Part shown: positions 3,594-14,703 of the stretch, piece by piece
How the letters are laid out: each line of letters opens with the position of its first letter
How positions within the stretch are numbered: the stretch's first letter is position 1
Source of the DNA: PVC group bacterium
GTDB taxonomy: Bacteria; GCA-001730085; JADFSZ01
Reading direction: 5' to 3'
DNA length: 14,703 nt
Assembly: GCA_022560555.1 (NCBI GenBank)
Contig: JADFSZ010000019.1
Span: forward strand, 1 to 14,703
Notes under the pieces: generated by a model
Database searches by the model: none
The model's input: only the letters and a program-made list of their open reading frames with translations
Told to the model about the DNA's origin: nothing
Program-made: the position numbers and the translations under genes

Positions 3594-4139
3594 ATGATTT
3601 TATCGGATAAAAAGCTCAAGCAAATGATTCGCGAAAAAGAGCTTGTCATTGAACCTTTAGGGGAAAATTCTATTCAGGCGGCATCGATTGATTGCCGGCT
3701 CGGAAATCATTTTTTAGCCGTCGAAGACAAAGACAGGGACATATTAACGCTGGATCAGGAAATCTTGTATCGGGACATTCATGGAGAAGAGAGTATTATC
3801 CCGGCGCATTCCTTTCTTTTGGCAACAACGCTAGAATATATAAAACTGCCCAATCATGTTACGGCCTTTGTAGAAGGGAGAAGTTCGATTGGGCGTATGG
3901 GGCTTTTTATACAAAACGCGGGATGGGTAGATCCGGGGTTTGAAGGGAAGATCACGCTTGAACTTTACAACGCGAATTCGTTGCCGATCAAATTACAATC
4001 GGGAAGAAGGATATGTCAGCTGGTGTTTTGTGAACTGGACCAGCCGGCCGAATTTCCTTATCGGGGAAAATACCAGAAGCAAGATCAAGCCATCGGAAGC
4101 CGTATCTATAAGGATGTCGAAATTCAGGGCTCTGTTTAA
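3594..4139 (+). CDS. dcd: dCTP deaminase (dUTPase-superfamily trimer), 181 aa
   Basis: MILSDKKLKQMI...IEPL...IQAASIDCRLG...VEGRSSIGRMGLFIQNAGWVDPGFEGKITLELYN...GRRICQLVF matches the Dcd family pattern. The start is taken at ATG 3594 (residue 50 of the track ORF) because GAGG at 3584-3587 precedes it. The upstream 49 codons merely read through the tandem repeat. Confidence 0.92.
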   Translation: MILSDKKLKQMIREKELVIEPLGENSIQAASIDCRLGNHFLAVEDKDRDILTLDQEILYRDIHGEESIIPAHSFLLATTLEYIKLPNHVTAFVEGRSSIGRMGLFIQNAGWVDPGFEGKITLELYNANSLPIKLQSGRRICQLVFCELDQPAEFPYRGKYQKQDQAIGSRIYKDVEIQGSV

Positions 4140-4184: not shown

Positions 4185-5261
4185 TCAAAGGGTTGACGAT
4201 GAATGGCGTCTTTGAAGAAAGAGAAAATCAACCAGCACAGAAGCAATCATGGCTTCGACTACGGGAACTACGCGCGGACACAAGCAGGGATCGTGCCGCC
4301 CTTTCACTTCGATCGTCTCTGTTTTAAGACGGGTGTTAACCGTAACTTGTTTTTGCGCAATAGACGAGGGGGGTTTGGTTACTACGCGCATGACAAGGTC
4401 TTCCCCGTTGGAAATCCCTCCCGCAATTCCTCCGGCATGATTCGTTTTTGTGCGGATTTTATTGTTTTTGACAACCATTAAGTCATTCGACTCTGAGCCC
4501 TTTTGGTGCTGACTTGCGAATCCCGATCCGAATTCGACGCCTTTGATGGTTCCGATAGACAGAAGGGCGTATCCCAGGCGAGCTTCAAGCTTGTCAAAAA
4601 CAGGTTCCCCTAGGCCCGGGGGACAACCTTTCACAACGGCTTCAACAATTCCCCCAACGGAATCCCGCTCTTTACGGGCCGATTCAATCGCTTCAATCAT
4701 AAGTTTTGCTTGATCATTATCCGGAGAACGGACCATGTTTTGCTCGATATGATCAAAATTGATTTGCTTGGCGTAAATACCGGCTACAGCCAGCGTGTAG
4801 GCTGTTATGCGGATTCCTTTTTCTAAAAGAATTTTTTTCGCGATGGCACCGGCGGCGACGCGGCAAGCTGTTTCACGGCCCGAGGAACGCCCCCCTCCCC
4901 GATAATCACGGACGCCGTACTTGGCAAAATACGTGTAATCGGCGTGTCCCGGACGAAAAACATCTTTAATGTTGGAATAATCCTTGGGACGTGTGTCTGT
5001 ATTGCGGATCAATAAAGCGATAGGGGTCCCGGTTGTCACTCCTTCAAAAACACCGGAAAGAATTTCAACTTGGTCAGCTTCTTTTCTTTGTGTCGTGATC
5101 GAGCTTTGTCCCGGGCGCCTGCGATCCAAATCTTTTTGTATATCCTCTGCTTTTAAGGACAATCGCGCAGGAACCCCATCCACGATGACACCAATAGCGG
5201 GACCATGACTTTCCCCAAAAGTTGTAAAACGAAATAATTCTCCAAAAGTATTGCCGGACAT
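4185..5261 (-). CDS. aroC: Chorismate synthase, 358 aa
   Basis: Shows the family N-terminus MSGNTFGELFRFTTFGESHGPAIGVIVDGVPA plus RRRPGQS, RPGHADYTY and RSSGRETA motifs. GGAG lies 7 nt upstream of the ATG. Confidence 0.97.
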   Translation of the reverse strand: MSGNTFGELFRFTTFGESHGPAIGVIVDGVPARLSLKAEDIQKDLDRRRPGQSSITTQRKEADQVEILSGVFEGVTTGTPIALLIRNTDTRPKDYSNIKDVFRPGHADYTYFAKYGVRDYRGGGRSSGRETACRVAAGAIAKKILLEKGIRITAYTLAVAGIYAKQINFDHIEQNMVRSPDNDQAKLMIEAIESARKERDSVGGIVEAVVKGCPPGLGEPVFDKLEARLGYALLSIGTIKGVEFGSGFASQHQKGSESNDLMVVKNNKIRTKTNHAGGIAGGISNGEDLVMRVVTKPPSSIAQKQVTVNTRLKTETIEVKGRHDPCLCPRVVPVVEAMIASVLVDFLFLQRRHSSSTL

Positions 5262-5441: not shown

Positions 5442-6506
5442 TTACGTAATCATACCGCAGCCGAGACAGTTTTCCCCGTCATAAAAGACGGCAAATTGCC
5501 CGCTAGCAATCCCGGCATCTTCGGCCTGAAGACTCACCTCATAAACAGAATTGTCGATTTTGTGAATACGTCCCGGAATTAAATTTTCTCCATGGCGGAT
5601 TTTAATAAAAAGATCTTGATTGTCAAAGGGAGCATCCGAAATCCAACTGGGACTATGGATTTTAAAAGCGTTTCTTTTGCGAGTATGAAGAGTATCAAAA
5701 TGAGATACGTATACGACATTTTCTTCAATATTCTTTTTGACAACATACCAAGGTCCTCCCGATAAACCCAAGCCATGACGTTGACCAATCGTATGATACC
5801 AATAACCCCGATGGGAACCGAGTTTTTCCGAGCTTGTGATGTCCACAATATCCCCGGGCTGTTCTCCTAAGTGAAACCGGACGAACTCATTAAATTTAAT
5901 GTTACCCAAAAAACAAATGCCTTGGCTGTCTTTTCGGTTTTTTGTGGGCAGCCCGGTTTGTTGGGCGTACGCGCGAACATCTTTTTTACGGATACTTCCG
6001 ATGGGAAACAAGGCGCGGCGGAGTTGCGCTTGATTCAAATGCGACAAAAAATATGTTTGGTCCTTGATGGGATCTTTGGCGCGAAGCAATTGATAACATG
6101 AACCTTTATCATGAATTCGGGCATAATGGCCCGTAGCCACTTTCTCGAAATCATCAGGAATTTTTTCTAAAAACGCGCCAAACTTGATTCGCGCGTTACA
6201 AAAGATGTCGGGACTAGGCGTGCGGCCTTCCTTTAATTCCCGGATGGTGTAGCTAACCACGCGATCAAGATATTCTGTCTGCAAAGAAACAATATGAAGA
6301 GGAATCTGAAGTTGATCACATACTTTATGGGCATAATCAAGATCTTCCTGCCAAGGGCATTCCCCGATATGCTGCAGCTCATCTTCAAGCCAGATTTTAA
6401 TGTAAAAAGCCTCCAAAACGTGTCCCTCAGCTTTAAGAAGTGACGCCGCAACGGAACTATCAACACCGCCGGATAAGAGAATCGCAATTTTGAGATGCTG
6501 GGACAT
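5442..6506 (-). CDS. mnmA: tRNA-specific 2-thiouridylase (s2U34 synthesis), 354 aa
   Basis: Has the PP-loop IAILLSGGVDSSVAA, the family body (GHYARI, DQTYFL, KDSQGICFLG) and the C-terminal beta-barrel region. The start is moved to ATG 6506. The track's GTG at 6512 overlaps the GGAG (6516-6513 on the minus strand) that serves as RBS for the ATG. Confidence 0.94.
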   Translation of the reverse strand: MSQHLKIAILLSGGVDSSVAASLLKAEGHVLEAFYIKIWLEDELQHIGECPWQEDLDYAHKVCDQLQIPLHIVSLQTEYLDRVVSYTIRELKEGRTPSPDIFCNARIKFGAFLEKIPDDFEKVATGHYARIHDKGSCYQLLRAKDPIKDQTYFLSHLNQAQLRRALFPIGSIRKKDVRAYAQQTGLPTKNRKDSQGICFLGNIKFNEFVRFHLGEQPGDIVDITSSEKLGSHRGYWYHTIGQRHGLGLSGGPWYVVKKNIEENVVYVSHFDTLHTRKRNAFKIHSPSWISDAPFDNQDLFIKIRHGENLIPGRIHKIDNSVYEVSLQAEDAGIASGQFAVFYDGENCLGCGMIT

Positions 6507-6521
6507 GAACACTCCGAACCA

Positions 6522-7940
6522 TTATGATGGGTTTTGAAGAAATCCGGCAGGTAGAAGGGAGTCGACTTCTCCCTCAAGGGAAAGAGAAAGAGATTTTGTT
6601 ACCCGCACGAGAGCAAATGAGCCGATCAAGCTTTTGTCCGATGAGGCAATACGAATCGGGATACGCCCTTCCGTTTTACCCATCAAAAAACCTTTTTTAC
6701 GCCCCTCAGCTTCAATAAGAACAGGGAGGATTTTCCCGGCCTGTTTTTCGTTTTGTGCCGATGCGACACGCATGAGATCCGTTGTTAAAATCCGAAAACG
6801 GGATTTTTTTGTGTTCGCGCTCACCGTATCCTCCCAGCGGGCACTCACCGCTCCCGGACGAGGGGAGTATTGAGCAATATACGCCATATGAAACTGAAAT
6901 TGATCCATAGCTTGGCGTGTACCTAAGAAGTGCTCTTCCTCTTCGTCGGGGAATCCGACAATAATGTCTGTAAACAAAGTGGCTAAGGGTAAAATTTCAC
7001 GGACCCACCGGACAATATTTTCATAATGATTGATGGTATAAGAGCGATTCATTTTCTTTAAGATCCTATCATCTCCCGATTGAAGCGGTAGATGGATGTT
7101 GTTTGCTAAGCAGGGATATTTAGCCATGGTTTCCAAAACGTCCCGCGTCATGTCGCGTGGGTGAGGACTTGTGAAATAAACCCAAAAATCTTTTTTGGAC
7201 GCAGTTCCGATTTTACCGATGTCTTCCATAAGATCTTTAAAAAAATACGCGTCCTCTTTTTTGTCATGTCCGTACGAATTAACATTTTGTCCGAGAAGCG
7301 TTATGGATTTATATCCTTTTTCAACAAGACGTCCCACCTCATTTAAAATATCCTTAGAGCCCCGGGAAATTTCTCGTCCGCGTGTGTAAGGCACTGCACA
7401 AAAGGTGCAAAATTTGTCACAGCCGTTTTGGATGGGAACAAAGGCCTGAAAAGGCGAAGAGTATTTGGGCTGAATATCCCAAAAGTGCGTATCAAAATCT
7501 GTACGGATGCCGGCTCTTTTTCGGGAAATACCGCGAATAGGCGTCACCATACCGTACTGATCAAAAATGTCGGGTAAACGGGGAAGATCATCAATCTTAA
7601 ATAAAAGGTCGAATAGTTTTAAGAATTTTTTTTCATCCGCGGGAAGAATACAGCCGGAAACAAATGTGATCAGGCTTCTCTTGTCTTTCCACTTGTTCCA
7701 TTGATGAATCCGACCGTACACGCGATCGATCGCTTTTTGACGGACCGAACAAGAAACAACGCCTAAGAGGTCCGCTTCATCTTCATGGCTTGTAGGCTCG
7801 TAGCCCATGTCTTCCAGCACGGAGGTGATTCTCTCGGTGTCCGATGAATTCATCTGACAGCCCAAAGGCAAGATAAAATACCTAAGAGGCCGTGTGCGGT
7901 TTAAGCTTTGTTTATTTTGATCAATGTGTGCTAGGATCAT
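6522..7940 (-). CDS. miaB: tRNA-i6A37 methylthiotransferase (radical SAM MTTase), 472 aa
   Basis: The N-terminal UPF0004 domain carries the MiaB-type GCQMN motif (YFILPLGCQMNSSDTE). The radical-SAM cluster motif is GCDKFCTFCAVPYTRG, and there is a C-terminal TRAM-like segment. The stop lies 15 nt upstream of the mnmA start, so an operon is likely. Confidence 0.9.
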   Translation of the reverse strand: MILAHIDQNKQSLNRTRPLRYFILPLGCQMNSSDTERITSVLEDMGYEPTSHEDEADLLGVVSCSVRQKAIDRVYGRIHQWNKWKDKRSLITFVSGCILPADEKKFLKLFDLLFKIDDLPRLPDIFDQYGMVTPIRGISRKRAGIRTDFDTHFWDIQPKYSSPFQAFVPIQNGCDKFCTFCAVPYTRGREISRGSKDILNEVGRLVEKGYKSITLLGQNVNSYGHDKKEDAYFFKDLMEDIGKIGTASKKDFWVYFTSPHPRDMTRDVLETMAKYPCLANNIHLPLQSGDDRILKKMNRSYTINHYENIVRWVREILPLATLFTDIIVGFPDEEEEHFLGTRQAMDQFQFHMAYIAQYSPRPGAVSARWEDTVSANTKKSRFRILTTDLMRVASAQNEKQAGKILPVLIEAEGRKKGFLMGKTEGRIPIRIASSDKSLIGSFALVRVTKSLSLSLEGEVDSLLPAGFLQNPS

Positions 7941-8039
7941 CCGAATAGGATACTCTATTTACGGATTTGAAGTCAACTTAAAAGGAAGACTTTCTCAGAC
8001 CCGTTAAAATCGCAACTCTTTTATTGTAAATTGTTTATA

Positions 8040-9152
8040 ATGATTTCAAAGCCAAGTCAATCTTCTCCCGATGTGATCATTCTCGGCGCGGGTATCATCG
8101 GTTGCAGTATCGCACGGGAACTTGCAAAGCAAGGAGCCCTTGTTCGGATTTATGAGCGTCATTCGGAGGTCGCCGCGGAAGTGACCGGGGCTTCCATTGG
8201 GGTTTTGTCTTACAGCCCAAGCCTAAATCGGCCTAAAGCCTGGCATAAACTGGCAAGCTCATCCATCCAACAGCACCGAGCTCTCATGCAAGAATTTTCC
8301 CGGGAAACCGATACGGGTCCCATGTGGCATTGGATTGGCAGACTCAATGTGAGCTTGAATGAAAAAAGCACAAAAAAGCTGGAAAAGAGATTTCAGGTCG
8401 AAAAGGAAAATAATTTTGCTTCCGAGTGGATGGACCCAAAGGCCCTCAAAGAACACGGACACGCCTTAACGCATAAAATCCAAGGAGGTATTTTTTATAG
8501 CGATCACGGATGGGTAGATCCAAAAAACCTGACGATAGCGATAGAACAATCGGCCGCAAAACACGGGGCCAGGTTTTTTTATCAGCAATGTGTGGAAAAG
8601 ATTTTAGTAGAGCGGCACACGGCCGTAGGCATACGCGTCGGAAAAGAAAAGATTACCGCCGGGCATGTGGTTATTGCCGCGGGAGCCTGGAGTGCCGGAC
8701 TTGATCCCGAGCTTGAGTGCGGGGTGGCTCCTATCAAAGGACAAGCGATACACATTCACGAACACAAGGAGCAGCTACAACACATTGTCTTTGGAAACGG
8801 GGTCTATCTTGTACCCTGCCGGGGAGGCCTCACGGTGGGTGCGACACATGAGCACGTCGGATTTAATAATGATGTTACTTTGAAAGCCACAACACATTTA
8901 CTCAATCGTGCGAAAGAACTTTGCCCTCAGCTTGCCTCTGTCGAGGCGAAGGATGTGAGTGCTTGGTCGGGACTACGGCCGGGGACGCAAAATCGTGTTC
9001 CATGGATAGGCCCTTCCGGGAAGATAAAACATCTTTGGTGGGCAACGGGACATTATACGCATGGGATTTTGCTGGCTCCCATAACGGCGAAAATTATTTC
9101 AGATGGGATTGTTTTTCGAAAGGAAACGGATCTTTATACGACACTGTCTTAA
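8040..9152 (+). CDS. FAD-dependent oxidoreductase of the DAO family, glycine oxidase (ThiO)-like, 370 aa
   Basis: Has the dinucleotide-binding DVIILGAGIIGCSIARELAKQG...ER and ThiO-like blocks (VVIAAGAWS, PIKGQ, YLVPCRGGLTVGAT, WSGLRPGT..RVPWIG, ATGHYTHGILLAPITA). The start could be TTG 8031 or ATG 8040; neither has a clear RBS. Confidence 0.85.
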   Translation: MISKPSQSSPDVIILGAGIIGCSIARELAKQGALVRIYERHSEVAAEVTGASIGVLSYSPSLNRPKAWHKLASSSIQQHRALMQEFSRETDTGPMWHWIGRLNVSLNEKSTKKLEKRFQVEKENNFASEWMDPKALKEHGHALTHKIQGGIFYSDHGWVDPKNLTIAIEQSAAKHGARFFYQQCVEKILVERHTAVGIRVGKEKITAGHVVIAAGAWSAGLDPELECGVAPIKGQAIHIHEHKEQLQHIVFGNGVYLVPCRGGLTVGATHEHVGFNNDVTLKATTHLLNRAKELCPQLASVEAKDVSAWSGLRPGTQNRVPWIGPSGKIKHLWWATGHYTHGILLAPITAKIISDGIVFRKETDLYTTLS

Positions 9153-9160
9153 GGAAACAT

Positions 9161-9189
9161 TTGATATTTTTAAAATTATTTAATATAAT
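9161..9189 (+). promoter_or_regulatory. Near-consensus sigma70-type promoter upstream of the DUF2203-like gene
   Basis: TTGATA (9161-9166), a 17-nt spacer, then TATAAT (9184-9189). GGAGAGG follows at 9204-9210 and the ATG at 9223. This is a motif match only, in an AT-rich spacer. Confidence 0.45.
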
Positions 9190-9222
9190 TAGGGTACAAT
9201 ATTGGAGAGGTATACTCATAAT

Positions 9223-9594
9223 ATGACAATGAAAAATTTTACACCAGCCGAAGCCAATAACACTCTGCCTCTTGTTAAAGAGATCGTAAAAGATATTTTG
9301 AACAAGGCGAAAGAATGCCGCATTTCTCCCGACTCATGTCGGGACGTTCAAGAGGAAATTCTCTCGCTGATCAAAGAACTGGAAGACATCGGCTGCACCT
9401 ATAAAGATTGGAATTTTGATGTTGGTCTTGTGGACTTTCCCTCCTCCGATCTTAACGGCAAGGACATTTTGCTCTGCTGGCGCAGTGATGAAGAGATTGT
9501 TAGCTGGTATCATGGCCTCGAAAATGGATATTCCGGCCGAAAACCTATTCCAAGCGAATGGCTTGAAGAATTGTCCTCCCAGAAAAAAAACTAA
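9223..9594 (+). CDS. DUF2203-like small protein, 123 aa, function unknown
   Basis: [20 protein letters not shown] ... [18 protein letters not shown]...[32 protein letters not shown] resembles my recollection of the DUF2203 pattern (FTleEAn.lLP ... GLVDFP ... LCW..gE..I.yWH....GfaGR.Pi). The start could be 9223, 9229 or the TTG at 9202. Confidence 0.65.
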
Positions 9595-11486
9595 ACCACA
9601 CTTTTTTGTTCATTTTTTAGATAAATGTAAAGCACCGAGATGTCGGCCGGAGTAACTCCGGATATGCGGCTGGCTTGGCCGATGGAGCGAGGTTGGATGC
9701 GTGTCAGTTTTTCTTTAGCTTCACGGCAGAGGGATGTCATGGCGGAATAGTCAAAATCTTCCGGAATGATAATGGATTCGATATTTTTCAGCTTAGTCAC
9801 AAAAGCCTGCTCACGGTGAAGATACCCTTCATATTTAATTTCTGCCTCCAGTTGATCCAAGAGATATTCCCTTTTAGTTAGCTGCTGAACATACTCAAAC
9901 TGATGGGGCTCAATGTAAGGCATAAGCTGACTCAATTTAATTTGAGGCCTTCGGCAAAGTTTCGCGACGCTTTCGGATGAATCAATCGGGCTGATTTTCA
10001 GACGATTCAAAAAAGGATTGATCTTTGCGGATGAAATAAAAACCTTTTTTAACAATTGAAAACTGTCCTTCAAAATTTGTTCTCGTTCTTTCATATTGTC
10101 TAGGGTCTCCTGGTCGATGAGACCCAGCTGGTGCCCATGAGGCATGAGACGCCGGTCCGCGTTATCTTGCCTGAGAAGGATGCGGTGTTCCGCGCGGGAC
10201 GTAAACATACGATAAGGTTCATCCGTTGATTTGTTGATGAGATCATCAATCAGGACTCCGATATACGCTTCATTCCGTTTTATCAAAAAAGGATTTCTCT
10301 TCTGGACTTGGCACGCGGCATTGATACCGGCCACAAGCCCTTGAGCGGCCGCTTCCTCATATCCGGATGTGCCATTAATTTGCCCGGCTAAATAGAGGCC
10401 ATCAACCGCTTTTGTTTCGAGTGTGTATTTGATTTGGTATGGCGGAAAAAAATCATATTCAACGGCATAACCGGGCCGTACAATTTCGGCATCTTCAAGA
10501 CCGCGAATAGTATGAATGGCCTCGATTTGTATCGTGGCTGGTAAAGAGGATGAAAATCCGTTCAGATAAATCAAATCCGTTTGCAGCCCTTCGGGCTCAA
10601 GAAAAAGCTGGTGCCGCTCTCTATCTTGAAAGCGCACAATCTTGTCTTCAATCGATGGACAATACCGGGGGCCAATGCCTTTGATTCTGCCTGTGAACAT
10701 GGGAGATTCCCCAAAGCCAGTCTTTAATATGTCATGCGTTTTAGGATTTGTATATGTGATGTGACAGGCGATTTGAGGCTGATACGGAAATTCCTGCAAG
10801 GGGGTTTGAAACGAAAAAGGGGAAGGCCTTTCGTCTCCGGGTTGTGCTTCAAGCTGGCTCCAATGAATGGTATCTTTTTTGAGACGGGCCGGGGTTCCTG
10901 TTTTTAAACGCCCGGTTACAAGACCCTGCTTTCTGAGGGATTCCGACAATCCTGTGGCCGGTTTTTCCCCCACACGTCCTCCGGGTTGAGAGTTCAATCC
11001 TGTGAACATGACGGCGTTCAAAAATGTTCCGGACGCGATGATGAGGGCTTGACAATATATTTCATCTCCGTCGGATGTTTTCACGCCGATCATTTTTTTG
11101 TTTTCGATGAGGGCTTCAATAACTGAGATGGTAAGGACGGTAATGTTCGGAGTTGAGCCGACGAGATTTTGGGCCTCCGTTTGATAAAGATCCCGATCTG
11201 ACTGGCAGCGCGGAGACCAAACGGCAGGTCCTTTCGAGGTGTTAAGCATGCGAAACTGAATCCCTGTTTTATCCGCAAGCCGGCCCATGACACCGCCGAG
11301 AGCGTCAATCTCTCTGACCAAATGTCCCTTCGCTGTACCCCCGATCGCGGGATTACAGCTCATACGCCCGATAGCGTTAGGGTCCATCGTGGCTAAACCC
11401 ACCTCGCATCCCATGCGTGCCGCGGCACACGCGGCTTCAATCCCGGCATGTCCGCCGCCGATTACAATAATATCAAAACGTTTCAT
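9591..11486 (-). CDS. mnmG: tRNA uridine 5-carboxymethylaminomethyl modification enzyme, FAD-binding subunit, 631 aa
   Basis: [42 protein letters not shown] and the C-terminal GidA-associated region all match, and the length is typical of MnmG/GidA. Confidence 0.97.
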
Positions 11487-11548
11487 GTTGTTCTTTTCGT
11501 CATTTGGATTTCGGGCTTTGGAATTCCAGGAATTTTTTAAGTTCCGGG

Positions 11549-12907
11549 TTATTTCCCGATGCAGAATTTTGAAAAAATGTTATTTAACACATCATCCGTT
11601 GTTACGATACCAATAATCTCATCCAACTCTTGAATGGCCTCGCGTAAATCCATAGCGATAAATTCCTGGCTTAATTGTTCCTCGAGAGATTGGCGCGCTC
11701 GCTCGAGACATGTTTTTGATTTTTCAAGAGCGTGAAAATGCCGAATATTGGTGACCACAATGCTTTTTTCTGTGTAGGGATGTATCGAGATAGCCCGTGA
11801 TTTCAATATTTCTAACAATTCATTCATCCCGTCTCCTGTGAGAGCAGAAACGTCGATGTCCCGCGCAGAATCACACTCCAGCTTGAGGTCGACTTTGTTC
11901 ATGACACGAATCATTCGGATTTCATCGGTTAAATCTTGAACATGATGATAAAGTTCTTCGGAAAAACCCGACTGAGCGTCAAAAAGAAACAAAACAAGAT
12001 CCGCGTCCCGAATCGCTTGATTACTGCGGGTGATCCCTTCTTCTTCGATCAAGTCTTGAGCTTGTCTGATACCGGCAGTATCAGACAGATGAAAAAGAAG
12101 CCCTCCATATTGCAGTTCTTCTTGAATAGTATCCCGTGTTGTCCCGGGGATATCGCTCACAATAGCGCGGTTTTCTTTAAGAAAATAATTCAGAAGTGAT
12201 GATTTTCCGGTATTGGGCAGGCCAACAAGCGCAACATGAATACCTTCTTTCATGACGCGTCCGAAAGCATAACTGTCACACATGGTTCGAATCTCATCCA
12301 GGATACCTGAGATTTTCACATCCATTTCTTTGGGACTTGTAAAAGAGATGTCTTCTTCAACGAAATCCAACTCAAGCTCTAAAAGAGAAGCCATGTGAAT
12401 CAAAGCTTCCCGAAAAGAGTTGACTCTCTTGGAAAGAAATCCGTTCAATTGATTTCGGGCGCCCTTAAGGGAAGCCTCGGTGCGTGATGTGATGATGTCT
12501 TGCACCGCCTCGGCCTGTGTGAGATCCATACGGCCGTTAAGATAAGCTCTCTTTGTGAATTCTCCGGGCTCGGCCAAACGCGTGCCGTTCTTTACTAATT
12601 TTGAAAGAATCTTTTGAGTGATAAGGGGATTACCGTGGGTTGTTATTTCAACGGAATTTTCTCCGGTGAAAGAATGCGGGCGATGAAAAACAGACACCAT
12701 GACATCATCAATCAGGGATTGGTTGTCTTCAAAAATTTTTCCATAGTGAATCGTGTGTGTAGGAGATTTTTTAAGAGATGTTTTTCCGGAAAAGATATTG
12801 TCTACGCATTCAATGGCCCTGTTGCCGCTCACACGGATGATAGCCAAGGCCCCTACACCTCCCGGTGTGGCGATCGCAGCTATAGTGTCTTCAAGAGAAA
12901 TTTTCAT
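11549..12907 (-). CDS. mnmE: tRNA modification GTPase, 452 aa
   Basis: The N-terminal [22 protein letters not shown] matches. G-domain motifs are present: [12 protein letters not shown] (G1), GTTRD (G2), DTAGIR (G3) and NKVD (G4). The protein ends with the hallmark CIGK tetrapeptide. It lies upstream of mnmG in the same orientation. Confidence 0.97.
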
Positions 12908-12939: not shown

Positions 12940-13368
12940 TTATTTGGCTTTTTTAGATGAACATTTGCATCCGTGGCAGGATTTGATTTCTTCTGTTTTT
13001 AAAGCGAGATTAATAAGACCCTCAATCGTTGTCGTGCCTGATGTTTCATATTTCACGTTCTCAATGGCGAACACATCCGACTTTTTTCCGCGTCCCATCC
13101 CCAGAAAAACCCCAAGACACACCTGAATCGAATAGAGGTGTTTACAGAGCAAAAATTCCGAGATGGGATCTAGTTGATCCAGATCGGGGACATAGTCCTC
13201 AACAACCGCATTCATCAATTCCTGAACCGGTTTTCCTTTGATATACGGCAAAAGCTCCCGGCCGCCCACGCTTTTACCGCACGACTTCTTCGTCAGAATA
13301 AAGTCTTGAAGCATTTCATCTGAATCAAGTGTAAGCTCAATAATTTCAGTAACATCAGAACACGGCAT
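12940..13368 (-). CDS. Hypothetical Cys-containing protein, 142 aa, with weak IscU/NifU-N-like resemblance
   Basis: GGGAG lies about 7 nt upstream of the ATG, and an in-frame stop 10 codons upstream rules out a longer form. Three Cys (C3, C30, C75) and KGKPVQE align by eye with the IscU pattern PACGD...GCG...KGKSLDEA...HC. The canonical ~35-aa N-terminus is absent, and a C-terminal extension ends in CHGCKC. The function call is tentative. Confidence 0.5.
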   Translation of the reverse strand: MPCSDVTEIIELTLDSDEMLQDFILTKKSCGKSVGGRELLPYIKGKPVQELMNAVVEDYVPDLDQLDPISEFLLCKHLYSIQVCLGVFLGMGRGKKSDVFAIENVKYETSGTTTIEGLINLALKTEEIKSCHGCKCSSKKAK

Positions 13369-13479
13369 GTCAAGCTCCCATGTGTGTGAATATGGTTAAC
13401 AAATCAAAAGATACGTACCATATAGTGTATCATATGAGCAGGGTAGAGACAAGGGCGGACCCTTAGTCAATAAAGGAAA

Positions 13480-14478
13480 TCAGTCTAAAGGGCTTTTAAC
13501 GCCGTGCCCGCCTTTATTTAAAACATGTGTATAGATCATCGTTGTCGAGACATCACTATGCCCCAACAGTTCTTGAACCGTGCGGATATCATATCCGTTT
13601 TCCAGTAAATGTGTTGCGAATGAATGACGAAAAGTGTGACAGCTACCGGGTTTAATAATGCCGGCATCTTTAATGGCTTGCTTGACTGTTTTATGCAACG
13701 ACGCTTCTGAAAAGTGATGTCGACGGACAATATCGGTTCGAGGATCAATTGAGCGGTTTTTTGCGGGGAAAACATATTGCCATCCTAATTCCTTATCCGC
13801 ATGCGGATATTTCCGAGATAAAGCATGGGGAATATAAACTGAGCCATATCCTTGTTTAAGGTCGTTATTGTGCAGTTCTTTGACGTTCAAGAGATGTTTT
13901 TTTAATGGGTTGATAACAGTTTCCGGCAGGATGGTAACACGGTCTTTATTACCTTTCCCGTTCCGGACCGTGATTTGCTTGTAATCGAAATCAATATCTT
14001 TTACACGTAGTCTCAGACAATCCATTAGCCGAAGACCTGCGCCATATAATAGGCTCACCATAATCCATTTTTCATCGCGAAGCTTAGAAAGGATCTTTTG
14101 AGCTTCTATCTTAGAAAATACTATTGGTAGTCGTTTAGGACGCTTTGCCTTTTCAATATTTGTAAACATCCCTAGATCTTTTTTTATAACATTTTTATAA
14201 AGAAACACAATGGCAGAGAGCGCCTGGTTTTGGGTTGATGCAGATACCTTGTTTTTTGTCGCGAGACTGCTAAGGAAAGACGAAACTTCACTTTCGCCCA
14301 TATCTCTTGGGTGGCGCTTATTATGAAATAAAATATATCGTTTTATCCAGCCGGTATAAGCTTCTTCGGTACGGATGCTGAAATGTTTTGTGCGGATAAC
14401 TTGCGTAACCATGTCTAAGAGTTTTGGCTTGTGAGCGTTAGTGGGATTTGGTACAATAAATGGAACTTGAGTATTCAT
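13480..14478 (-). CDS. intI: Integron integrase (IntI-type tyrosine recombinase), 332 aa
   Basis: The N-terminal core-binding region matches ([37 protein letters not shown]). Catalytic residues are present: R in [15 protein letters not shown]-x-x-R in [12 protein letters not shown], and Y in TTMIYTHV. The IntI-specific insertion [37 protein letters not shown] is also present. GGAG lies 8 nt upstream of ATG 14478. Confidence 0.9.
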
Positions 14479-14630
14479 ATCTATTTCTCCAGTATCGGAT
14501 AGTTACAGAAAACCTATATTTTTAGTACTGGTTGTGAAAATCAGAATATACATAACTCTAACAAATTAAGATAATAAGTCAATAATTATTTTAAATCTGG
14601 TCCTAAATAGAAATTTAATTATATATTTTA

Positions 14631-14652
14631 GTACAACTAATCATTGTTAGAC
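14631..14652 (+). other. Candidate attI simple site (L box GTACAAC, 8-nt spacer, R box GTTAGAC)
   Basis: GTTAGAC at 14646-14652 is the only GTTRRRY match I found between intI and the window end. It lies 168 nt upstream of the divergent intI start. GTACAAC at 14631-14637 matches the reverse complement of the R box (GTCTAAC) at 5 of 7 positions. A single 7-mer of this degeneracy could occur by chance in 225 nt. Confidence 0.35.
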
Positions 14653-14703
14653 GCCTTTTGGGAAATAGGGGAAAAGCAAAACTGAAATACACCGCGTAGG
14701 TGT

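Follow-up and report, generated by a model that had tools for sequence, protein, structure and literature searches.

Evidence for a chromosomal integron platform with a mapped attI crossover at the end of a PVC group bacterium contig

The right-hand end of contig JADFSZ010000019.1, from an uncultured "PVC group" bacterium, is very probably a chromosomal integron platform, consisting of an integron integrase gene (intI) and its attI recombination site. The stretch that we analysed, referred to here as the window, is the whole NCBI contig of 14,703 base pairs (bp), and DNA to the right of position 14703 lies outside the record. This reading is supported because a metagenomic relative, contig L084, whose platform is 92.5% identical to that of the window, has a real cassette array on the corresponding side of intI. 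An earlier note on this DNA, made from the sequence alone, had proposed a platform at the window edge with cassettes beginning at about 14646 and running off the contig, and the properties of the integrase (IntI), the mapped crossover point and the L084 array bear that proposal out. The features on which the argument depends, with lengths in nucleotides (nt) or amino acids (aa), are as follows.

13480-14478, minus strand: intI, the integron integrase gene, intact, 332 aa.
13714-13824, minus strand: codons 219-255 of intI (ALSRKYPH...RRHH), the IntI-specific additional segment, aligned without gaps to the corresponding segment of the Vibrio cholerae integrase VchIntIA.
14646-14652, plus strand: the attI core site GTTAGAC, with the crossover placed between G14646 and T14647.
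14647-14703, plus strand: start of the presumed first cassette, 57 nt (TTAGAC plus 51 nt), truncated where the contig ends.

The product of intI scored 468.7 bits against the NCBIfam model TIGR02249, "integron integrase", for which the cut-off is 265, whereas it failed the models for both XerD (149.4 bits, cut-off 329.6) and XerC (149.4 bits, cut-off 335.15). Its Pfam matches were PF13495 and PF00589 (Phage_int_SAM_4 and Phage_integrase). The best match among solved structures was VchIntIA (PDB 2a3v), at 3e-95 and continuous over residues 23-331. Residues R150, K175, H281, R284, H307 and Y316 of the window protein stand at the catalytic positions, aligned to R135, K160, H267, R270, H293 and Y302, the catalytic residues of VchIntIA; the tyrosine recombinase residues claimed by the earlier note are thus all six present. 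The extra segment to which that note had also pointed corresponds to residues 219-255, in which the tryptophan motif (FRWHY in one protein, LGWQY in the other), the conserved proline and RRHH were all aligned with VchIntIA. Residues 197-251 ran unbroken against 2a3v, whereas the alignments to XerA and XerD came in two pieces that skip them. On the question raised in advance of whether the protein would fail an IntI model or group with the Xer recombinases, it passed TIGR02249 and failed the Xer models.

The class 1-type equivalog model NF011946 gave 337.5 bits, below its cut-off of 435, and the predicted product of 13480-14478 is an intact integron-type tyrosine recombinase that is not a class 1 IntI. 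NCBI gives the name "integron integrase [PVC group bacterium]" to a near-identical member of its protein cluster, encoded on a contig of 14703 bp, whereas exact look-ups with the IntI and MnmE sequences of the window returned no match. A search of genome contigs with IntI returned relatives at no more than 64% identity, and outside its own small clade no relative exceeded 68%. The Pfam Phage_integrase domain, taken alone, would permit a lone XerC/D-like or phage-type tyrosine recombinase with no connection to cassette capture. That reading has next to no chance of being right, as it is refuted by the scores, which lie far above the integron integrase cut-off and far below those for the Xer proteins, by the IntI-specific segment and by the cassette array that adjoins the 92.5%-identical copy in L084; in addition, the attI pattern was without a match in the viral contig collection.

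Relatives of the platform were obtained by a protein search (IntI 98-99% identical) together with further members of the same 90% cluster. Six contigs were compared with the window (L081, L082, L083, L084, L085 and L211). Across the intI-attI region their nucleotide identity to the window was 98.8% for L085, 97.7% for L211, 97.5% for L081, 96.9% for both L082 and L083, and 92.5% for L084 (the last over 13484-14654). A five-way alignment of the window with the metagenomic contigs L081, L083, L084 and L085, all of which reach the core site, was conserved up to ...ACTAAT(C/T)ATTG. The sequences then read TTAGAC, TTAGAT, TTAGAC, TTAGAC and TTAGGT, and after this TTAGRY each of the five contigs continues into unrelated DNA. 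Pairwise identity was 75-95% over the 60 nt that precede the point between G and TT, versus 25-43% in the 51 nt after TTAGRY. In each of the four relatives an open reading frame (ORF) directed away from intI starts 14-26 nt past the core, mostly with a GGAG-like ribosome-binding site ahead of it.

Because homology breaks exactly between G and TTAG in five contigs, we place the crossover between positions 14646 and 14647. The pattern of a conserved left side and a divergent right side is that expected if different cassettes had been inserted between the G and the TT of attI, and the variable last bases of TTAGRY would come with each cassette. The 7-9 nt that are shared appear too short for an assembly artefact to explain the junction pattern. 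The comparison thus identifies, next to intI, a site with its recombination point between the G and the TT of GTTRRRY, and the GTTAGAC that the earlier note had placed at 14646-14652 is present as the sole plus strand GTTRRRY within 14479-14703. An exact 27-nt attI pattern had no match in metagenome contigs, and it missed the sole JGI relative because L084 differs by one base; a relaxed form of the pattern was absent from viral contigs. Five different first cassettes behind near-identical platforms may be taken as direct evidence, at the level of natural populations, for an active system.

L084, a JGI contig of 13.3 kb, extends for 6.2 kb on the attI side of intI. That side has at least ten short ORFs, every one of them encoded on the other strand from intI; none had a firm Pfam match, and one had a weak match to DZR. 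Between the ORFs lie repeats of the form GYCTAACCACTCGCT...GGATGTTAGRY; the motif CTAACCACTCGCT was matched eight times, on one strand and restricted to the attI side of intI. Five complete attC sites were aligned and found to be near-identical apart from an insertion of about 80 nt. The two short sites, of 94 and 98 nt, can be folded as imperfect hairpins with a paired R''/R', an unpaired spacer and a paired L''/L' with a bulged base, and in both the bottom strand was the stabler (-14.1 versus -9.9 and -18.9 versus -16.4 kcal/mol for bottom versus top). The integron of this lineage therefore has real attC cassettes. By analogy with L084, an array in the window's lineage would be made up of short genes of unknown function and very similar attC sites of about 95 or about 170 nt. 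Homogeneous attC sites of this kind are typical of chromosomal, or sedentary, arrays (PMC4889954). A scan of the metagenome with a 15-nt attC motif returned at least 120 stretches, nearly all of which were single and seemingly random.

Several other properties of the relatives' arrays were observed. The insertion of about 80 nt lies immediately after GCTTA of the L'' box in three L084 sites (4769-4931, 2039-2216 and 1650-1824), giving attC variants of 163-178 nt. The attI-proximal cassette of L084 (58-aa ORF, 5858-6096) is a 94%-identical duplicate of 1808-2046, which lies about 4 kb deeper in the array. A transposase gene of the IS110 insertion sequence (IS) family (DEDD_Tnp_IS110 plus Transposase_20) occupies L084:2650-4215, inside an attC site near its R' end, between ...GGCTTAGCTGCTAT and ...GTATGTTAGAT. 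The end of the contig at L084:1 stops at the same GCTGCTAT of another attC site, which suggests a second IS110 copy. By the insertion of its DEDD transposase gene near the R' end of an attC site, and by the second site being cut at the same position, the element resembles the attC-targeting insertion sequences of the IS1111-attC group within the IS110 family; it occurs in L084 and not in the window, and the resemblance is drawn from insertion position. In L081, an IS21-family element (istA/istB, 134-2440) lies right after or inside the 54-aa ORF of the first cassette, and two AATTGTCGYTGA repeats at about 2385-2425 may be its terminal repeats.

The part of the presumed first cassette that is visible in the window resembles neither the first cassettes of the relatives nor any of 211 fetched loci. 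In 14647-14703 there are stop codons in all three plus strand frames and no usable start codon, and all three minus strand frames are open, such that the first cassette may have a long leader or a reverse orientation. At the very end of the contig (14689-14703, minus strand) there is a terminator-like hairpin, ACACC-TACGC-GGTGT, with a T-rich run. The stop of the assembly at 14703 is most likely due to different cassettes at that position in the strains of the sample.

Several observations weigh against a platform with cassettes. The 57 nt to the right of the crossover have no recognisable ORF start, and a search of the window with the attC motif, allowing up to three mismatches, gave chance-level matches only and no attC site inside it. 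Three of the relatives (L081, L083 and L085) reach no attC site before the contig end or the IS21-family element, and the evidence for an array comes from L084, where the platform lies in a different chromosomal context. Finally, the promoters for the cassettes and for intI, given below, are consensus matches only. The first of these points would also suit an empty platform (In0), into which no cassette has been inserted, with the 57 nt to the right of GTTAGAC being ordinary chromosomal backbone; indeed, under the IntegronFinder rule an intI without a recognisable attC site is classed as In0, and this contig alone would be so classed (PMC4889954). We consider an empty platform very unlikely, however, since an ancestral backbone should recur in the relatives and all five right-hand sequences differ. 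In addition, the contig breaks 51 nt past the core, which is what a junction that varies between strains should give, and the sequence opens with TTAGAC-GC, like the cassette starts of L083 and L084. A cassette array beyond the window is, on these sequences, our best inference.

If the platform operates as proposed, IntI would bind attI as double-stranded DNA and the attC site of a circular cassette through its folded bottom strand (PMC2095811, PMC4889954). Exchange of one strand between the G and the TT would then place the cassette immediately to the right of 14646, so that the last 57 nt of the window would be the beginning of the first cassette. The inserted gene, being first in line, would be read from a cassette promoter (Pc) in the intI/attI region, and cassettes would be excised through recombination between two attC sites. 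These steps follow the established integron mechanism (PMC2095811, PMC4889954) and are applied to this platform from sequence alone.

The region between intI and the crossover contained the following features, of which the promoters were found by consensus scan.

14479-14646, no strand assigned: AT-rich intI-attI intergenic region, holding the intI leader, candidate promoters and attI.
14487-14490, minus strand (complement): GGAG, the ribosome-binding site of the intI leader.
14631-14640, plus strand: two candidates for the left arm of the simple site of attI, GTACAAC (14631-14637) and CTAA (14637-14640).
14520-14528 (extended, 14515-14528), plus strand: first copy of the direct repeat, TTTTAGTAC, situated in the leader of intI, 42-50 nt before its start codon.
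14626-14634 (extended, 14620-14634), plus strand: direct repeat copy 2, TTTTAGTAC, 12 nt to the left of the core site.
14429-14457, plus strand: candidate cassette promoter Pc, within the 5' end of intI and with a TG extension (TTGTGA-17-TACAAT).
14547-14575 and 14558-14586, plus strand: weaker promoter candidates.
14555-14582, minus strand: candidate intI promoter, TTGACT-16-TAGAGT with a TG extension.

The intergenic region is conserved among the six related contigs, with a more variable middle: 11 of the 20 columns at 14560-14579 were variable, versus 2-5 of 20 close to both ends. The GC content is 28% over the 225 nt at 14479-14703 versus 44% over the window. To the left of the core, GTACAAC precedes GTTAGAC by 8 nt, as the earlier note had recorded, and the alternative left arm, CTAA, gives CTAA-N6-TTAG together with the core. 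GTACAAC reads GTATGAC in L085, which counts against its proposed role as the L box, and the adjacent ACTAAT does not vary in any sequence that extends so far. The assignment of either motif as the left arm is an inference and the binding sites are putative. The -35 hexamer of the candidate intI promoter is not conserved in L081 or L082. We rejected the palindrome CTGGTTGTGAAAATCAG at 14528-14544 as a possible LexA-type operator, since its spacing is one base off that of the Escherichia coli LexA box and its palindromic positions vary among the relatives.

The direct repeat noticed by the earlier note is present, but the exact unit is 9 nt, its flanking TATAT can be aligned only with a 1-nt indel, and the extended first copy runs to 14528 rather than 14527. 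In dinucleotide-preserving shuffles of the 225 nt at 14479-14703, an exact repeat of at least 9 nt was found in 21% and a GTTRRRY in 26%. Judged from the window alone, none of GTTAGAC, GTACAAC and the repeat exceeds what chance would give, and they carry no weight by themselves.

These chance frequencies bear directly on the suggestion that TATAT(T)TTTAGTAC at 14515 and 14620 represents IntI-binding repeats like DR1 and DR2 of attI1, with GTACAAC as the L box. Both copies are present and largely conserved in the six contigs, there is a TTAG within the repeat unit as in the right arm TTAGAC, and attI1 itself carries core-site-like direct repeats (PMC3146285). However, the two copies lie 106 nt apart and the whole of attI1 spans 65 bp, such that two core-site-like repeats within about 65 bp of the crossover were not found here; most environmental attI sites are also without attI1-type direct repeats (PMC3146285). 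The second copy reads TTTTAGTAT in L085. The conservation of the first copy is uninformative because it lies within the intI leader, the whole neighbourhood of which is conserved. With GTACAAC as the L box, moreover, the 8-nt spacer would put the AAC and GTT cleavage points 10 bp apart, beyond the overlap of 6-8 bp that is usual for tyrosine recombinases (PMC2095811). The likeness to attI1 put forward by the earlier note did not hold up under this comparison, and we regard an attI1-like arrangement as unlikely.

Core genes lie to the left of intI. Next to intI and on its own strand are, in order, a 142-aa ORF, mnmE and mnmG, and the identities of the two core genes named by the earlier note were confirmed.

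12940-13368, minus strand: ORFan gene of 142 aa, with no Pfam or NCBIfam match.
11549-12907, minus strand: mnmE.
9591-11486, minus strand: mnmG.

The contig also carries a gyrA fragment, a dCTP deaminase-like gene, aroC and mnmA, together with genes for a radical-SAM methylthiotransferase and an FAD oxidoreductase, and no transposase, Tn402-type tni genes, plasmid genes or terminal repeats were found in the 14.7-kb window. The platform therefore lies among core genes (gyrA, aroC, mnmA, mnmG and mnmE) with no transposon or plasmid backbone. Window positions 5442-12907 form a tRNA-modification cluster of mnmA, the methylthiotransferase (UPF0004 plus TRAM), the DAO-family FAD oxidoreductase, mnmG and mnmE. 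The lineage of the host is poorly sampled, because its MnmG has no relative above 65% identity other than one 100%-identical copy, on a 14703-bp "PVC group bacterium" contig. The 142-aa ORF belongs to a single cluster of nine members among 5.8 billion proteins; it is linked to intI in seven related contigs, among them L082, L085, L206-L208 and, with its start only, L083, and it was not found next to intI in L081, L084 or L211. Between the intI stop codon and this ORF (13369-13482, minus strand), the intergenic sequence is predicted to fold much more stably than its shuffles (-13.6 kcal/mol, z = -3.7), with a hairpin directly after the intI stop, and it had no Rfam match; Rfam and tRNA scans of the whole window were empty.

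Based on this setting, the earlier note had called the platform sedentary. The core-gene neighbours, the absence of mobility genes from the window and the gene order of L082 speak for that label, and at least four different downstream neighbours among close relatives speak against it. What makes the label doubtful is that close relatives carry different DNA 3' of intI, with homology breaking off at the stop codon. L082 retains the order intI, 142-aa ORF, mnmE and mnmG at 96.9% identity overall. L085 keeps the 142-aa gene, which is followed by an unrelated gene. In L081, L211 and L084, homology to the window is lost 0-10 nt from the stop codon of intI (window 13480-13490 versus L081:3750-3770, L084:7255-7270 and L211:1125-1150). 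Beyond this break L081 has a 162-aa gene, 12 nt (3755-3766) past the end of shared homology, L084 has 94-aa and 148-aa genes and then the same 162-aa gene as L081, and L211 has a 105-aa gene. The 162-aa flank is 97.2% identical between L081 and L084, whereas their intI genes are only 91.6% identical. The variability of the 3' side suggests rearrangement or replacement of the platform.

If so, the intI-attI module (13484-14652) would be exchangeable or recently moved rather than fixed beside mnmE, and it may have travelled by transfer or recombinational replacement between related genomes. The abrupt loss of homology next to the intI stop in contigs that are 97.5% (L081), 97.7% (L211) and 92.5% (L084) identical to the window fits this view, as do the four kinds of neighbour (142-aa ORF and mnmE; 142-aa ORF and an unrelated gene; the 162-aa gene of L081 and L084; and the 105-aa gene), the higher identity of the L081/L084 flank than of intI, and the IS21-family and IS110-family elements within the arrays of relatives. 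Further, L084:7896-7930 is a 35-nt copy (97% identity) of an L211-type intI 3' end plus 7 nt of flank; this remnant is 660 nt downstream of the intact L084 intI and looks like a leftover of an earlier platform. On the other side, the window holds none of the mobility genes or terminal repeats listed above, the intI of L082 has diverged as much as the core genes that it adjoins, and attC sites as homogeneous as those of L084 are characteristic of sedentary arrays (PMC4889954). The contigs are also short and from unknown hosts, such that transfer and local rearrangement are indistinguishable. Weighing these points, we consider a non-sedentary platform possible but less likely than not.

A stronger form of the same idea is that the 1.17-kb intI-attI module itself is a discrete exchangeable unit in this lineage, based on the sharp breaks in homology between the G and the TT of attI on one side and by the intI stop codon on the other. 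It would fit replacement or relocation of the whole platform, possibly mediated by the integrase at a secondary site that ends its own gene, and we consider it quite unlikely. The last codons of intI read TTAGAC, TTAGAT or TTGGAT (GTTAGAT in L081), which is core-site-like and could be mere Leu-Asp coding. In L206, a 1.4-kb contig (positions 1-210 compared with the window), intI is cut at a position matching window 14072, and its 5' half, attI and the cassettes are replaced by unrelated, GC-richer DNA that by eye resembles a tryptophanase-type gene; this contig is either a deletion variant or chimeric.

Among well-characterized systems, the chromosomal integron of V. cholerae (VchIntIA, also IntI4; PDB 2a3v) is similar in the full-length alignment of the integrases, including the extra segment. 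In VchIntIA this segment contacts extrahelical bases of attC. In both systems intI and the cassettes are divergent, and the many cassettes of unknown function and near-identical attC sites of L084 recall the VCR-type array. The integrase of the window is only distantly similar, however, and its host is a "PVC group" metagenome-assembled genome. The attC sites of L084 follow a different consensus, GYCTAACCACTCGCT...GTTAGRY, over about 95 nt or, in the long variants, about 170 nt. The window contig shows nothing of its own array, and the chromosomal position varies among close relatives. The platform shares with that of class 1 integrons an intI, a divergent attI that ends in GTTRRRY with its crossover between G and TT, and a promoter-like site in the 5' end of intI that faces the cassettes, as Pc does inside intI1. 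It differs in that the protein falls short of the class 1-type model, there are no supported equivalents of DR1 and DR2 and no Tn402 backbone in the window, and no resistance genes were seen in the cassettes of the relatives.

The closest counterparts are environmental chromosomal integrons, as the best non-self matches of IntI, at 63-68% identity, were from Candidatus Brocadia, KSB1, Desulfosarcina, Acidobacteria and others, and all were annotated as integron integrase. The window stands apart from these in that, outside its own clade, neither its IntI (68%) nor the MnmG of its host (65%) has a relative above the identities given. Integrons have already been reported in Planctomycetes and Verrucomicrobia (PMC4889954).

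As a gene-capture system of a well-known type, the platform is ordinary, and its biology is standard. The general understanding of integrons is unchanged by it, as the gene was already annotated by NCBI, integrons of the PVC group were known and the cargo of this contig lies beyond view. The variable DNA 3' of intI is the only aspect that may interest specialists on the movement of chromosomal platforms. What is gained is an attI site whose crossover is mapped by natural variation, for an integron of a poorly sampled, uncultured lineage, and, through L084, a matching attC family for that same lineage.

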